Of a stretch of DNA of 64,000 nt, positions 1,158-53,710 are shown piece after piece; the first letter of the stretch is position 1; each line of letters opens with the position of its first letter. The stretch lies in contig NC_090419.1 in NCBI RefSeq assembly GCF_036365525.1, forward strand, positions 11,966,001 through 12,030,000, in the 5' to 3' direction. This stretch comes from Heterodontus francisci. Its lineage: Eukaryota. The notes beneath the pieces were generated by a model. The model made no database searches, was not told the DNA's origin, and saw only the letters and a list, made by a program, of their open reading frames with translations. The position numbers and the translations under genes were made by a program.

Positions 1158-2004
1158 CAACCACAGTGGGCTCCAGTTCTATAAACACGCCTCGGGGGAT
1201 GTGTTGGCCCGCCCCCATCTCACTGAAGAAGGCGTTGAAGGAGTCATCGCCACCCCCGATGGTCTTGTCACTGGGCATCTGTCCATCCAGCTGGATCCCA
1301 TGCTCCAGGCAATGCGGCTCCCAGCAAGCGTTGCCGACCTGCACACCAGCCTGGCCAATGTGGATTGAAATACACTCATGCTAAGGAGGGAAGAACAGGT
1401 GATGTTTTACACAGGATGAAAGGCAATGCTTTATAGTTAGTATAGGTGGGAAGAGAAAGGTGCAGAGAAACACATTCCATTACAGTAACCTGTGGATTCC
1501 ATCCATTCCCTGTGAATTCTATCTGCCTCCCGGTGGATTCTCCAACTTCATCCTGCTCCTAATCCCAATGAAAGCCTCCATTCATTGTGGATCACTTCCG
1601 TGAATTGCCTCGGACTCCAAAGTTACACTCTGTCTGGATCTCAATTCCTCCTTTATATCCATTCCCTGTGGATCTTTTTGATGACTGTGGCTTTCCCTCC
1701 TGCTATCCATCTCCCTCACAGTGGATTCCCCTCACCCTGTTCATTTCCCTTTCTTAGGGGATTACCATTTTCCCAGTAGGTTAGGTTTCCTCTTTGGTCA
1801 TGGATTGCTACTCCTCCTGTGCATTCCCGGTCTCTCCCACTGGATTTCTTGCTCTCTCACAGTGAATTCCTACTCTCCCAATGTATCCCACTCTCCTATG
1901 GAATTCACACTCACTTAGACTCTCAATCGATTTTACTAACCCTGCAGATTCCTTTGGCTGGATTCACAATATCGCCTTTGCATACGTCCGCACACACTCA
2001 CCAT
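1158..2004 (-). pseudogene. tuba: alpha-tubulin copy 1: exons 1-2 only, degenerate and apparently 3'-truncated
   Basis: Exon 1 is ATG at 2002-2004 followed by a gtgagt donor. Exon 2 is 1158-1380 (223 nt, ag/gt), reading [33 protein letters not shown]...IELEPTVV with R2H, L23P, Y24H, P32L and D69E. Exon 3, about 510 bp downstream in copy 2, is absent and replaced by CR1 sequence. Confidence 0.75.
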
Positions 2005-2060
2005 GATCTCCTTCTGTTCTTACAGCTCCTGAGAATGTGCTTTGTGTTGACCCTCCCACT

Positions 2061-2255
2061 ATTTATACTGTGCCCAGTAGAACATGCCAATCAACTGAAC
2101 CAGGATCTGATTGGCCTCTGAGAACAAAAGAGTGTGTAACAATTGCACAGATGATACAGTGGTGCTCAGTGGTGATTGGTTCTTTGTGCAAAAGGCGGAA
2201 CTAAGGGTTCGCAACAATCTATTATTGGAGGAGCACTAGGCAACAAGGAGCCATT
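2061..2255 (-). promoter_or_regulatory. tubulin core promoter (TATAAAT, several CCAAT boxes, GTTGCCTAG RFX-like half-site)
   Basis: TATAAAT lies at 2061-2067 on the minus strand, about 57 nt upstream of the ATG. CCAAT/ATTGG occurs near 2087, 2110, 2175 and 2224, and CTAGGCAAC at 2236-2244. The same block precedes every copy. Confidence 0.7.
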
Positions 2256-2675
2256 TTTGTAAATCAGATCTCCATCAATCAATTCACGATTAAAAAGGCA
2301 GCCACCAATCAGGGCCACCTCAATCACACTCAATTCATCAGATCCCAATCAACCCCACAGATCAATCACAAGCTATCAGTCACAACCATGTCAATCAGAT
2401 TTTCATCTCTTCCATCCGTCACATCTGTCAGTCACTCCTCCCTCAAACAGGCAGGCATCAACATGACTGCCATCTGTCAGATCCCCAGAAATCAGACCCC
2501 CTTCACACAGGCCTGCACCAAAGAAAGCCCATCATTCAGACTCTGTCAGTCATACACTCATTACTCAGAGCCCCTCGCTCAGATTCCCATCAATCAGACC
2601 ACAGGGACCAGAGACCCATCTTTCAGATGCTCAGCATTTGTCATATTGCTGTTTGGCATGCAGGTAATCCTCTGA

Positions 2676-49393: not shown

Positions 49394-50311
49394 ATAGATA
49401 TATGTATATATACACGTATGGAATACTCTGCACTTGCAGCCAAGTAATTTCTACCCATCAATCAGATAACCATCTATCAAATTTCCAGGTATCAGGTCCC
49501 AATCTGAGCAACCACCAACAATCTGCAATGATTGGCCCCATCTCCACTTTCTATTGGATCTCATAAATCAAATGCCCAGAAATCCATCCCTCATACATCA
49601 GACTCCCACCCATCTGACCCCAATCCATCATTTTCCATCATTCTGACCCCCATCTATCAGACCCCGTTCTGTCAAACTTTGTCAGTGACATACATCAATC
49701 AGACCCACGTTTATGGTATCCTAGCAATCGAATTCCCACCCACATTACTCAGATTCCCATCTATTAGACTCCATCAATGTGAATCCCATCTATCAGATTC
49801 CCATCATGCAGAGCCTCATTAATCAGACTCACATTTATCAGACCCTATTGATCAGAATCCCCTCAAACTGATCTCCAATACTACATTTCCAATCGATCAG
49901 ACACCCCCCCCCCCCCCCCTATCAGATCCCATGCAGAGAGACCCATATTAATCAGTCCCATTATCAGTCAGAGCCACCAGGATCAGTGGACAGTGTTTTA
50001 ATGACTGGAGTGCTCTGTGACTCCTGGTCTGCAGCCCTGTGGAGTTTGATTAACCCACTTTCTGGGTCATTGATCCTCTTTTATTATCTTCAGTCTTCTT
50101 CTTTTACACTGTGCTTCTCACTCTCTTGTCATGCATTTAAGGCTTTTAAATCAACACACACACCCAAAATCATTGAAAAATAAATTTATTCTCAAATATA
50201 ATTTATAACATCAATGTGAAATAGATTTTAAATCTTTTTACTCTCTAAATCAATATTATTCTATCACGTCAATGTGAAATAAAATCTTTTTACTATCTAA
50301 ACTAATGAATA

Positions 50312-53300
50312 TTATTCCTCCTCCTCTGCCCTTCTGTCCAGCGAGGAAGAATCGATGGCCACTTCCTCATAATCCTTCTCGAGTGAGGCCATGTCCTCCC
50401 GTGCGTCCTGGAACTCCCCTTCCTCCAGCCCCTCCCCCACGTACCAGTGGACAAAGGCCCGCTTGGCGTACATCTTATCGAATTTGAGGTTGATGCGGGT
50501 CCAAGCCAAGGAAATGGCGGTGGTGTTGCTCAGCATACAGAGGGCTCGCTGCACCTTTGCCAGATCGCCCCCTGGCACCACCGTCGGGGGCTGATAGTTG
50601 ATGCCAACCTGTGCAGTGGGGAGGAAAGAGATTACATTAGATTCAGCTACATAAGCAGAAGCTTCAAAATCAGATCTGTTTGTTGCCAAATAGATTCTAA
50701 AAATGCTAAAGTAATGAACTGGGTTGCATCTTTCACTGGACGAGAATAAGCTCCAGTTATTCACTGGGCTCTTCTAGGTTTGAAGCTTCAGTTTCTGATC
50801 GAAGATGCAGTGAGGCTGCATTCAGAATCTAACTGAGTTCCATATTGCACCTTTTCAAATGTGACCCTGATTGTCAGGAAGACATTTTCTCATTTCAAGG
50901 CAGGACTTCTCCTGGGACTGTCAAGCCTGCAATCAAGGATTGAAGCTGAGAGAATTCTGTTGACAGCCTCAGAGAGAGCTCCTCTTTGGGCCAGCGATGG
51001 AGAGTGTCTGTTACTTTACACTTCCAGAATAGAGGGAAAAGTTTTGATCCAGACTGAACAGACATACTGTTCACATGTGAGATGAGATTGACACAATCCA
51101 TGTTTGGCCAGGGCTCCATGGATTGGACAAAACAAAACACACTTACCTTGAACCCAGTCGGGCACCAATCAACAAACTGGATCGAGCGCTTGGTCTTGAT
51201 GGTTGCAATGGCAGCGTTGACATCCTTGGGCACCACATCTCCACGGTACAGCATGCAGCACGCCATGTACTTGCCCTGGCGGGGGTCGCACTTCACCATC
51301 TGGTTGGCTGGCTCAAAGCATGCGTTGGTGATCTCCGCCACCGACAGTTGCTCGTGGTAAGCCTTCTCGGCCGAAATAGTGGGCGCATAGGTTACCAGAG
51401 GGAAGTGAATTCGGGGATAGGGGACCAGGTTGGTTTGGAACTCAGTCAGGTCCACGTTGAGGGCACCGTCGAACCGCAGCGACGCCGTGATGGATGACAC
51501 TACCTGTCCAAGGAGACGGTTGAGGTTGGTGTAGGTCGGTCGCTCAATGTCAAGGTTACGCCGAGATATGTCGTAAATGGCCTCATTGTCGAACATGAAG
51601 GCGCAGTCAGAGTGCTCGAGGGTGCAGTGGGTGACGAGTACGGCATTGTACGGCTCGACCACCGCGGTGGAAATCTGTGGCGCGGGGTAAACGGAAAACT
51701 CCAGTTTGGATTTCTTGCCGTAGTCGACGGAGAGTCTCTCCATCAGGAGGGAAGTAAAGCCTGAGCCGGTCCCACCCCCGAAACTGTGGAAGATGAGGAA
51801 ACCCTGCAGTCCTGTACACTGGTCAGCCTGTGGGTAAACAATGTACAAAATATTAAAAAGGAGCAAGAGATTGCATCTGTCACCAAAGAACAGTGACCAC
51901 CTGGTGGCACGGGGCCATGGGAGGTGGTGAGATGGGCCTGAGGGAGCCTGGAGGGAAAGTATAATGGCAGCCAGGTGGAAGCAGTGGGGAAAGAAGGATG
52001 GAAAGAGGTGCCAGCACTATCTGTGTAGTTCGGGTTGGGGAAGGCAATGTCAAGGAAATTCCCAGCCTCTTTTCATGAATGTTACTGGTCACAAGGAGTA
52101 TTGGAGAGACATCAGTAGTGATATTGGAGTGAATGCGTAGTATAGTTGCATCACATGGCCGTTTATAAGATTTCATTTGGACAAAGATAACGGGATAGTG
52201 GCCAGTGGTAAATGGTGAGGCATTGGGTGCTGCTGGAATTTGACATTGTCCGCCTTTACACAACTTACCAGCTTCCGTATGCGATCCAAGACCAGATCCA
52301 CAATCTCCTTGCCGATGGAGCAGTGTCCCCGCGCGTAGTTATTAGCCGCGTCCTCCTTGCCGGTGATGAGCTGCTCGGGGTGAAAGAGCTGTCGGTAGGT
52401 GCCGGTACGGACCTCATCTGGGGACAGGGAACAGAGATTTAAAAGCATGAAAACAGAACATTCTAGCAAATTTGATGCCTTCAGGGCATATTTCAGAGTT
52501 TAATGAGAGCACTGACTCATTGTCATTGAAACATACAAGATTCTGAAGGGGCTTGACAGGGCAGACACTGAGGTTGTTTCCCCTGATTGGGAAATCTAGA
52601 AAACGAGGGTAGTCTACGAATAAGGGGCTGATCATTAAGCACTGAGATGAGGAGAAATTACTTCACTCAAAGGGTTATTAGTCTTTGTATTTCTCTACCC
52701 CAATGGGTTGTCAATGCTCCATCACTGAATATATTTAAGGCTGAGATAGACAGATTCTTGCTCTCAGAGAATCAAGGCATACAGGGACTGGCGTGAAGGT
52801 GGAGTTGAACTCCTGTTCCTATTTCTTATGTTCTTATGACCAACCCATCAACAATCACTCCGCTTACCAATCACAGTGGGCTCCAGATCGATAAACACGC
52901 CTCGGGGGATGTGTTTTCCCGCCCCCGTCTCACTGAAGAAGGTGTTGAAGGAGTCATCGCCACCCCCAATGGTCTTGTCACTGGGCATCTGTCCATCCGG
53001 CTGGATCCCATGCTCCAGGCAATACAGCTCCCAGCAAGCATTGCCGATCTGCACACCGGCCTGGCCAATGTGGATTGAAATACACTCACGCTAAAGAGGG
53101 AAGAACAGGTGATGTTTTACATAGGATGAAAGGCAATGCTTGATAGTTAGTATAGGTGGGAAGAGAAAGGTGCAAAGAAACACATTCGATAACGGTATCC
53201 AGTTGATCCCAACCATTCTCTGTGATTTGTACCAGCCCCCTGATGGATCCTCCCACTTTCTTTAGGGCTTGATCCTACTCCCAATGGAAGCTGCCATTCA

Positions 53301-53710
53301 TTGTGGATCAGTCCATCACTTCCCTGGATTGCCTCGAACTCTATGGTTCCATCATTGGTGGATCCCTATTCCTCCTTTGCCTCCCTTTGGATATCCCTGT
53401 GGCTTTCCCTCCCACTGTGCATCCCGCTCTCACTGTGGATTCCACTCGCCTCGTTGATTTCCTTTTCCTTGGGGATTACCTGTCCTAACCGGTCAACCTT
53501 TCTGTTTCGCCAGGGTTTGCTCCTCTTCCTGTGGATTCCCGCTCTTTCCCATTGGCTCTCCTTCCTCTTCCCTTCCGCCCCCCCCCCCCCAGTGGATCCC
53601 ACTCTCCCATTGAATTCGCACTCGCGCTCTCAATGGATCTTACTATCCCTGTGAATCCATTTGGCACGATTCAGAACATCGCCCATGCCTACTCCGCAAG
53701 CACTAACCAT
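50312..53710 (-). CDS. tuba: alpha-tubulin copy 8 (variant B coding, divergent 5' end), 5 exons, 450 aa
   Basis: Exons are 53708-53710 (donor gttagt), 52868-53090, 52269-52417, 51147-51827 and 50312-50608, with an intact frame. Confidence 0.92.

Follow-up and report, generated by a model that had tools for sequence, protein, structure and literature searches.

Organization of the arrays

A 64,000-nt stretch of the Heterodontus francisci genome (the window, on contig C49) contains eight alpha-tubulin copies, all on the minus strand: seven are intact genes with five exons, and the eighth is a pseudogene. The start codons of the intact genes lie at positions 53710, 46089, 39326, 32631, 25005, 18243 and 10200. 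Each gene consists of exons of 3, 223, 149, 681 and 297 nt (introns GT-AG 4/4) and encodes a 450-aa open frame with a tail ending ...AEEEE*, and an AATAAA occurs 121 nt past the stop. In the first copy (50312..53710) the exons occupy 53710-53708, 53090-52868, 52417-52269, 51827-51147 and 50608-50312. The seven genes, as well as a promoter for each copy and a polyA signal for the complete ones, were proposed in the initial annotation, and our gene models, with their CCAAT boxes and AATAAA signals, bear this out. The proposed spacing of 6.7-8.1 kb is correct in its lower figure, but the ATG-to-ATG distances we measured reach 8.2 kb.

The window copies are not identical, as their coding sequences differ by 5-51 nt. 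Copy 2 (42627..46089) carries the private changes G321R and T361A and matches database protein P0201 without a difference across 415 aa, while copy 3 (35923..39326) carries a private R320C. The protein of copy 4 (29228..32631) is identical to those of copies 1 and 6. Copy 5 (21544..25005) is 5 nt from copy 2, copy 6 (14840..18243) is 7 nt from copy 3, and copy 7 (6741..10200) is the most divergent (Q11L, N50S, G57V and others). The pseudogene (1158..2004, ATG at 2004) retains a promoter, exon 1 and exon 2, where R2H gives a start of MH compared with MR in the intact copies. It was first described as truncated, and it is indeed incomplete, lacking exons 4 and 5. However, it is not cut after exon 2, since an exon 3 containing a stop codon lies left of the window edge (C49:11964058-11964206). 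A decayed exon-2 remnant is found in the spacer at 10878..11038 (minus strand), with similar remnants at 2710-2796, 18941-18998, 25626-25689, 33329-33386, 40024-40081 and 46711-46774.

Seven genes plus one describes the window, but the array itself is larger. It extends past the window on both sides, with a second array at a distance of 140 kb. Together the two arrays contain 28 gene units, with exons 2-5 in frame in 25 of them. Across the genome, 28 of 42 non-redundant matches to the alpha-tubulin motif belong to the isotype. Two half-copies are present at an inversion, and the flanks of the arrays are satellite-rich.

A three-gene higher-order unit with a period of ~21.1 kb is present twice in the window (14138..33263 and 35230..54330). 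The two copies are 97.9% identical overall and >99% identical in their core, with 0-0.7% mismatches per kb over 17-29 kb. Because the unit is near-identical to its second copy, three of the seven window genes are best explained by a very recent duplication; assembly duplication of two alleles is less likely. That much of the total copy number is an assembly artefact, with alleles or reads placed in tandem, is very improbable. The near-identical core is what such an artefact would produce, as is contig C1300, which is 100% identical to C49:11751019-11778312 over 27,294 bases. However, the coding sequences differ by at least 12 nt in 18 of the 21 pairs of window copies, intron 1 differs by 8-21%, and at least four distinct window copies, two second-array subtypes and two flanking copies cannot be alleles.

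Protein features

Both the Tubulin GTPase domain and the Tubulin_C domain are recognized in P0201 (Pfam PF00091, E 8.8e-48, and PF03953, E 1e-49, respectively), and the protein is 91.6% identical to crane TUBA1A over residues 1-439. K40, the GGGTGSG loop and catalytic E254 were reported as conserved and are retained, with the MREC start, in all seven intact window copies. The substitutions first singled out (A65G, Y108C, T193C, V204F, V275T and H309Q) are likewise present in 7/7 copies, but A65G and V204F are local to the window array, and the changes that define the family, together with a tyrosine-less tail, had been overlooked.

The family-defining changes L397K, M413L, S419Q, E420D and A427S fall on helices H11-H12, at sites that are 91-100% fixed in other alpha-tubulins. 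Non-family proteins have E420 in 166/166 cases, M413 in 166/167, L397 in 169/170, A427 in 165/167 and Y108 in 170/174, while the family residue at the H11-H12 sites is found in 41 or 40 of 42 members, and C108 in 38 of 39. Additional changes on the outer ridge include E386L, D392N and H393L, and 11 of the 37 substitutions of residues 1-439 fall within 384-432 (p = 0.001). H11-H12 is described as the interface for microtubule-associated proteins (MAPs) and motors, with D392, L397 and S419 in its bonding network, and changes at L397, S419 and nearby sites are linked in the same source to human lissencephaly (PMC2893812). The GTP loop is intact, as are R402, V409 and E415, which PMC9975266 identifies as contact sites for dynein and TOG.

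The C-terminal tail is shorter than usual and contains two arginines and no tyrosine. A terminal Y or F is absent from all 25 C49 copies and from the 43 family tails inspected. Additionally, K40Q occurs in seven of the nine copies of one second-array subtype (7/25 C49 copies).

Distribution and relationship to known tubulins

The isotype signature occurs in 49 database proteins, all of them from sharks, skates and sawfishes (15 species). These are cluster representatives (covering 15 of the 36 members of the main cluster), and a 92%-identical member from a chimaera or bony fish could sit in a canonical cluster. Among the matches listed, the isotype has so far been seen only in sharks and rays, so the suggestion that it is lineage-specific holds at the level of all elasmobranchs and not more narrowly. 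The family forms a clade with support of 100/100. Fourteen distinct family proteins derive from one chromosome of Amblyraja (thorny skate), suggesting an apparent separate amplification in skates. Several sharks have only a more divergent type II form among the matches, with no sign of an array. Database names such as 'tubulin alpha-1C chain-like' hide the family, and no published description of it was found in the literature searched.

The phase-0 intron after K352 was previously taken as a TUBA3/TUBA8-type structure. Among 12 other alpha-tubulin genes built, the same junction is found only in a TUBA8-like gene on contig C25, and it is absent from the 11 genes built from contigs C7 and C51. 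The residues I137, V270 and M317 are also common to the family and TUBA8/TUBA3-type genes. However, the best tree (22 of 50 rows) does not recover this grouping and places the family as sister to a four-exon gene on C7, L042 (89/86, not starred). Topology tests on the same rows gave AU p 0.30 for the family with the C25 gene and TUBA8, 0.17 when TUBA3 was added, and 0.21 with TUBA1, and thus rejected none of these groupings. In a separate quick tree the C25 gene groups with lizard TUBA8 (SH-aLRT 92), a grouping that the other tree does not resolve.

The family differs from TUBA1A/B/C, which have four exons and a C-terminal EEY, compared with five exons and ...AEEEE* here. The TUBA1-type genes of this genome are on C51 and share 97.9-99.4% identity with crane TUBA1A in residues 126-451. 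Near-canonical alpha-tubulins on C51 and C7 remain for housekeeping. The C25 gene shares the position and phase of the K352 intron, but the family forms a clade of its own, and the C25 gene differs from it by ~71 nonsynonymous changes. TUBA8 and TUBA3 occur in one to a few copies and have a terminal aromatic residue (Tyr in TUBA3, Phe in TUBA8), whereas the family has ~25 copies, no terminal aromatic and a remodelled H11-H12. TUBA4A and the chicken testis-specific alpha-tubulin resemble the family in encoding a tail without the C-terminal tyrosine, but they keep a canonical H11-H12 and are not known to be arrayed, and orthology is not indicated. L042 has a tail, VGIDSADLDR, matching that of skate family members. 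However, it ends in EEY, keeps L397, M413, S419 and E420, lacks K40 and is single-copy in this genome; its cluster (P0169) has 26 members, and the 15 listed are all elasmobranch. Local duplication and inversion have also produced the notothenioid alpha-tubulin expansion and protist tubulin arrays, for which dosage has been proposed. Those genes encode near-canonical proteins, while the shark array encodes an isotype with a remodelled surface.

Selection and recombination

Within the window dN/dS is 0.087 (means of 21.9 synonymous and 6.7 nonsynonymous differences over 21 non-independent pairs), indicating purifying selection and consistent with the suggested specialist isotype. Values are 0.05-0.06 within subtypes A and B, and 0.14-0.20 between types. 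The four-gamete test finds 176 of 780 site pairs incompatible. Between the arrays, synonymous divergence (0.11) is lower than intron divergence (0.24), and a gene on contig C463 is 98.5% identical to the window copies in exon 5 and 80.6% in the second half of exon 4. The head-to-tail copies exchange sequence and group by species, as in a concerted tandem array, and skate copies lie apart from shark copies (SH-aLRT 85 and 90 in the quick tree). Subtype B and type II remain distinct, and homogenisation is therefore partial. Given the low dN/dS and the recombination among copies, we conclude that the copies are maintained by purifying selection and, as first suggested, evolve concertedly.

The proposal that the genes were amplified for dosage is weakened by the absence of a beta-tubulin array: all 78 candidates were scored and ~10 intact-looking beta genes were found. 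Unless a single beta gene is highly active, extra alpha copies could thus not by themselves yield more heterodimer. Alternatively, the specialist may be real while its copy number is incidental, a product of unequal crossing-over in a repeat-rich small chromosome and birth-and-death turnover, with a few copies working and gene conversion keeping the rest intact-looking. Besides the missing beta array, the pseudogene, exon remnants and half-copies at the inversion, the satellite-rich flanks, the private changes at conserved sites (G321R, R320C, Q11L) and the lack of amplification among the matches from most other sharks are consistent with this explanation. We consider it somewhat unlikely, given the high proportion of C49 units in frame and their low dN/dS, the existence of two arrays, the distinct conserved promoter of each of the three subtypes, and the apparent separate amplification in skates.

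Promoters, neighbouring genes and RNA survey

The promoter module of the first copy (53711..53960, minus strand) consists of a GC box, two CCAAT boxes and TATAAATAG at 53774. This last element is located 63-64 nt upstream in each of the seven intact genes, along with CCAAT boxes. The module is repeated ahead of every copy and is conserved in the second array despite 24-26% divergence in intron 4. It is a generic CCAAT/GC/TATA promoter, and the motif scan gave no tissue signature. No germline motif was conserved: six of the nine promoters have an RFX-like half-site, and a MYB site lacks conservation.

Pfam searches of the neighbourhood gave eight kinds of hit among 150 of 192 filtered ORFs, including MITF/TFE family, Brix (IMP4-like), CCDC115, ALAS, GPCR and NAP-family genes. 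In humans, CCDC115 and IMP4 are located near TUBA3E. The ALAS gene occupies the interval between the arrays (C49 ~11.915-11.932 Mb), ~20 kb from the array, raising the possibility of a blood-cell isotype that serves the marginal band of nucleated erythrocytes, is amplified for output and perhaps shares an erythroid enhancer with ALAS. Dogfish marginal bands are reported to give four tubulin-range bands (PMC2112168), and alpha4A is described as the predominant platelet alpha-tubulin, needed for the marginal band (PMC6374996). We regard this possibility as doubtful. Neither GATA nor CACCC sites are conserved in the nine promoters, and GATA is absent within -400/+500 in two of four window promoters. 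The interval also contains the IMP4- and CCDC115-like genes, and the ALAS gene itself could be ALAS1 or ALAS2.

Urea affects tubulin assembly, and the isotype could instead be stored in oocytes or early embryos, or be expressed broadly as a form adapted to the urea/TMAO cytoplasm of elasmobranchs. The restriction to elasmobranchs among the matches listed and the generic promoter would fit such a role. However, near-canonical TUBA1-type genes persist, and the changes are concentrated on the MAP-binding ridge instead of being spread along the whole sequence, making this quite improbable.

The family was compared with 15 RNA runs, with a word share of 0.05-0.20 (best 0.20, none half). Four runs (X1, X3, X6 and X13), searched only with the final part of exon 4, intron 4 and exon 5, yielded four short contig records, none at least 95% alike. 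Both contigs spanning codon 413 read the canonical Met, and the contigs are other alpha-tubulins, which speak neither for nor against expression of the family. Two supplements of PMC11406177 contain no tubulin term.

Proposed function

Our leading, though tentative, interpretation from sequence comparison is that this is an elasmobranch subfamily kept intact by selection and homogenised by recombination, which probably provides a specialist subunit in large amounts to a single cell type, with male germ cells the likeliest candidate. The germline role is a best guess. In other animals, isotypes that are divergent, tyrosine-less and amplified are commonly testis genes. The protein would pair with ordinary beta-tubulin and polymerise. 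The changes E386L, D392N, H393L, L397K, M413L, S419Q and E420D make the outer ridge less acidic and more hydrophobic, which may alter the binding of MAPs and motors. The tail would be made already detyrosinated, and CAP-Gly proteins, which are reported to require tyrosinated tails (PMC4137062), would not bind unless a tyrosine ligase added Tyr. The K40Q second-array copies may act as constitutive acetylation mimics. The site of use could be spermatocytes or spermatids, with their helical head and reinforced flagellum, where copy number would serve output. A helical head and accessory columns are described for elasmobranch sperm, although the passages cited do not describe the columns as microtubules (PMC11856307). 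The amplification does not look essential to elasmobranch sperm, since several sharks show the type II form only among the matches listed.

A more elaborate version of the germline reading would have an alpha-tubulin that hard-codes parts of the tubulin code (born detyrosinated, with K40Q as an acetylation mimic in one subtype), its H11-H12 rewired at sites fixed from fungi to mammals. Horn shark and skates would each have amplified it autosomally, providing an 'out-of-X' supply once the canonical TUBA1 cluster had become linked to the HoxC-bearing elasmobranch X. We consider this combination unlikely. A protein search found an Antp-class homeodomain on C51; a Hox8 motif was not found there.

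Alpha-tubulin is among the most conserved eukaryotic proteins. With fixed ridge changes, no terminal tyrosine, a K40Q subtype and about two thirds of one shark's alpha-tubulin genes, the isotype offers a natural test case for the multi-tubulin and tubulin-code ideas. The influence of the H11-H12 ridge on the binding of motors and MAPs could be read from recombinant dimers, and the isotype may mark an unrecognised cell specialisation in elasmobranchs.

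Gene copies in the window and elsewhere in the genome

Splicing the window by the genes' own junctions recovered the seven intact minus-strand alpha-tubulin genes of the initial annotation. Each consists of five exons with GT-AG introns and a 450-aa reading frame, preceded by TATA and CCAAT boxes and followed by a polyA signal. The coding sequences differ by 5–51 nt. An eighth copy (ATG at 2004), previously described as truncated, is indeed incomplete, but that description did not extend to its being a pseudogene: it encodes R2H, exon 3 lies past the window edge and contains a stop codon, and exons 4 and 5 are absent. 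A three-gene unit of ~21.1 kb is present twice, with 97.9% identity overall and >99% in the core, so three of the window copies are probably very young duplicates; an allelic origin is less likely. LINE-type fragments occur at 54804–59943 and 1–1129, including an inverted pair (54804–55545 versus 59204–59943), and there is a GC-rich patch at 57100–57600.

The window corresponds to C49:11966001–12030000 in a 6.0-Gb genome. An exon 5 query gave 32 genome matches at 92% or above (40 of 47 candidates scored), four of them on contig C1300. The whole of this contig (C1300:1–27294; L035–L037) is 100% identical to C49:11751019–11778312; judged from sequence it is a redundant assembly piece, and it was left out of the counts. 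C49 contains 28 family gene units, 25 of which have exons 2–5 in frame. Of these 25, nine belong to the window's array and 16 to a second one at 11.70–11.81 Mb. Confirmation of exon 1 and the promoter covered the seven window copies, two copies each of subtypes A and B, and the upper flanking copy, rather than all 25. In the second array (C49:11702143–11812255; L002–L013) subtypes A and B alternate in a unit of ~12.6 kb, and two half-copies remain at an inversion near 11.724 Mb. K40Q is encoded by seven of the nine subtype A copies. IMP4-like, CCDC115 and ALAS genes (C49:11.887–11.932 Mb; L020–L025) lie between the arrays, and MITF/TFE-family, GPCR and NAP-family genes are also neighbors.

The upper flanking copy (C49:12031149–12048254; L029–L030) is intact, has introns of 2.6–6.6 kb and a GC-rich promoter, and may be the copy from which the array arose. 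The corresponding database model carries the label isoform X2, a weak hint at transcripts. Two C49 copies have identical Heterodontus francisci proteins in the database. A further family member, of type II (P0138; C463:234718–250835; L057, L056, L038), has a basic K40 loop (R in the 40 region), a divergent M-loop and a tail ending in LAEEGV.

Of 46 genome matches to an alpha-tubulin motif, 32 belong to the family (28 of 42 without C1300). Beta-tubulin is represented by ~10 intact-looking, scattered genes, and no beta-tubulin array was found in the genome motif search.

Distribution and protein features

Two region searches scored 3,539 and 6,611 proteins, with the best 120 listed for each, and were supplemented by cluster look-ups. 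The family signature is present in at least 49 of 315 collected proteins, all elasmobranch, and the matches listed represent 11 shark and four batoid species. No chimaera or bony-fish member is among them, where sequence clustering could hide one. The family forms one clade with two branches (SH-aLRT 100 in one tree; 100/100 in another). Type I is arrayed in H. francisci. Type II, found in Carcharodon, Cetorhinus, Stegostoma, Scyliorhinus, Pristis and others, additionally has a basic K40 loop and divergent M-loop. In Amblyraja, 14 distinct family proteins map to a single 52.9-Mb chromosome, and the accession numbers of many lie close together. We infer that type I is arrayed on this chromosome, and thus in skates too; part of the 14 may be isoforms.

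Compared with crane TUBA1A over residues 1–439, the protein has 37 substitutions, 11 of them within 384–432 (p = 0.001). Among up to 185 non-family alpha-tubulins, a non-random sample of search hits from fungi to mammals, retention is high for E420 (166/166), M413 (166/167), L397 (169/170), A427 (165/167), S419 (152/167) and Y108 (170/174). The family residues at these sites are, almost without exception, D, L, K, S, Q and C, respectively. Among substitutions listed in the initial annotation, Y108C and T193C proved family-wide and H309Q typical of type I, while A65G and V204F are only local. Kinesin, dynein, DCX and MAP2 dock on the interface formed by helices H11–H12, whose bonding network includes D392, L397 and S419 (PMC2893812, in extract). 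R402, V409 and E415, sites taken from part of PMC9975266, are retained. From residue 431 the tail has nine acidic and two basic residues, versus 11 and none in crane TUBA1A. It ends in AEEEE and lacks tyrosine; tyrosinated tails are what CAP-Gly proteins bind (PMC4137062, in extract).

Selection and sequence exchange

Mean dN/dS (Nei-Gojobori, non-independent pairs) among the window copies is 0.087; the values for subtypes A and B are 0.06 and 0.05, and those between types range over 0.14–0.20. Such low values indicate past selection on the protein; they do not show that every copy is expressed today. Across eight copies, 176 of 780 biallelic informative site pairs show all four combinations. 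Within the window, divergence is <2% in intron 4 and 8–21% in intron 1. The C463 gene matches a window copy at 98.5% in exon 5 versus 80.6% in late exon 4; the array looks to have converted its exon 5. These patterns probably stem from unequal crossing-over combined with patchy gene conversion.

Origin and other alpha-tubulin loci

The intron after K352, which had been recognized as TUBA3/TUBA8-type, is common to the family and the TUBA8-like gene on C25, and is absent from the 11 genes built on C7 and C51. Grouping the family with C25 and TUBA8 (AU p 0.30) or with TUBA1 (AU p 0.21) is rejected in neither case. The best tree pairs it with L042 (89/86), a four-exon C7 gene whose tail resembles that of skate family members and which falls in another apparently elasmobranch-only cluster (P0169). 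L042 belongs to an eight-gene cluster (C7:12.42–12.78 Mb; L042–L049) with several divergent members that lack K40 and end in I, C or F. A frameshifted partial copy resembling these (C4:154928973–154929652; L040) is probably a pseudogene.

The four TUBA1-type genes and a fourth Hox-type homeobox locus lie together on C51 (C51:118186–118356 and 7099604–7212416). This locus has an Antp-class homeodomain; the three Hox clusters are located elsewhere, on C2, C7 and C33. The shark X carries HoxC (PMC10620051; bioRxiv 2025.02.26.637739; both in part), so C51 is likely the X and the canonical TUBA1-type cluster X-linked. The shark X is without global dosage compensation (PMC11406177, in part), and a bold, rather unlikely reading would make the family an autosomal, germline supply backing up an X-linked one. 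However, C7 carries near-canonical autosomal genes, which makes such a backup less necessary.

Possible function and novelty

Precedent exists for divergent amplified tubulin isotypes and, with the persistence of canonical genes, favors male germ cells as the putative cell type. Elasmobranch sperm is unusual (PMC11856307, in extract), which points the same way. However, there is no beta array, several sharks apparently lack amplification, and a promoter motif scan of family genes found no germline promoter motif; we regard the assignment as tentative, falling just short of an even chance.

We found no description of the family or its arrays in the literature, where subscription papers or unread supplements may hold one, and the word 'tubulin' is missing from the main text of the shark genome papers examined for it. 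Arrays of tubulin genes and isotypes without the tyrosine are already familiar. What is new is an elasmobranch-wide isotype with remodeled H11–H12, present in ~25 copies.
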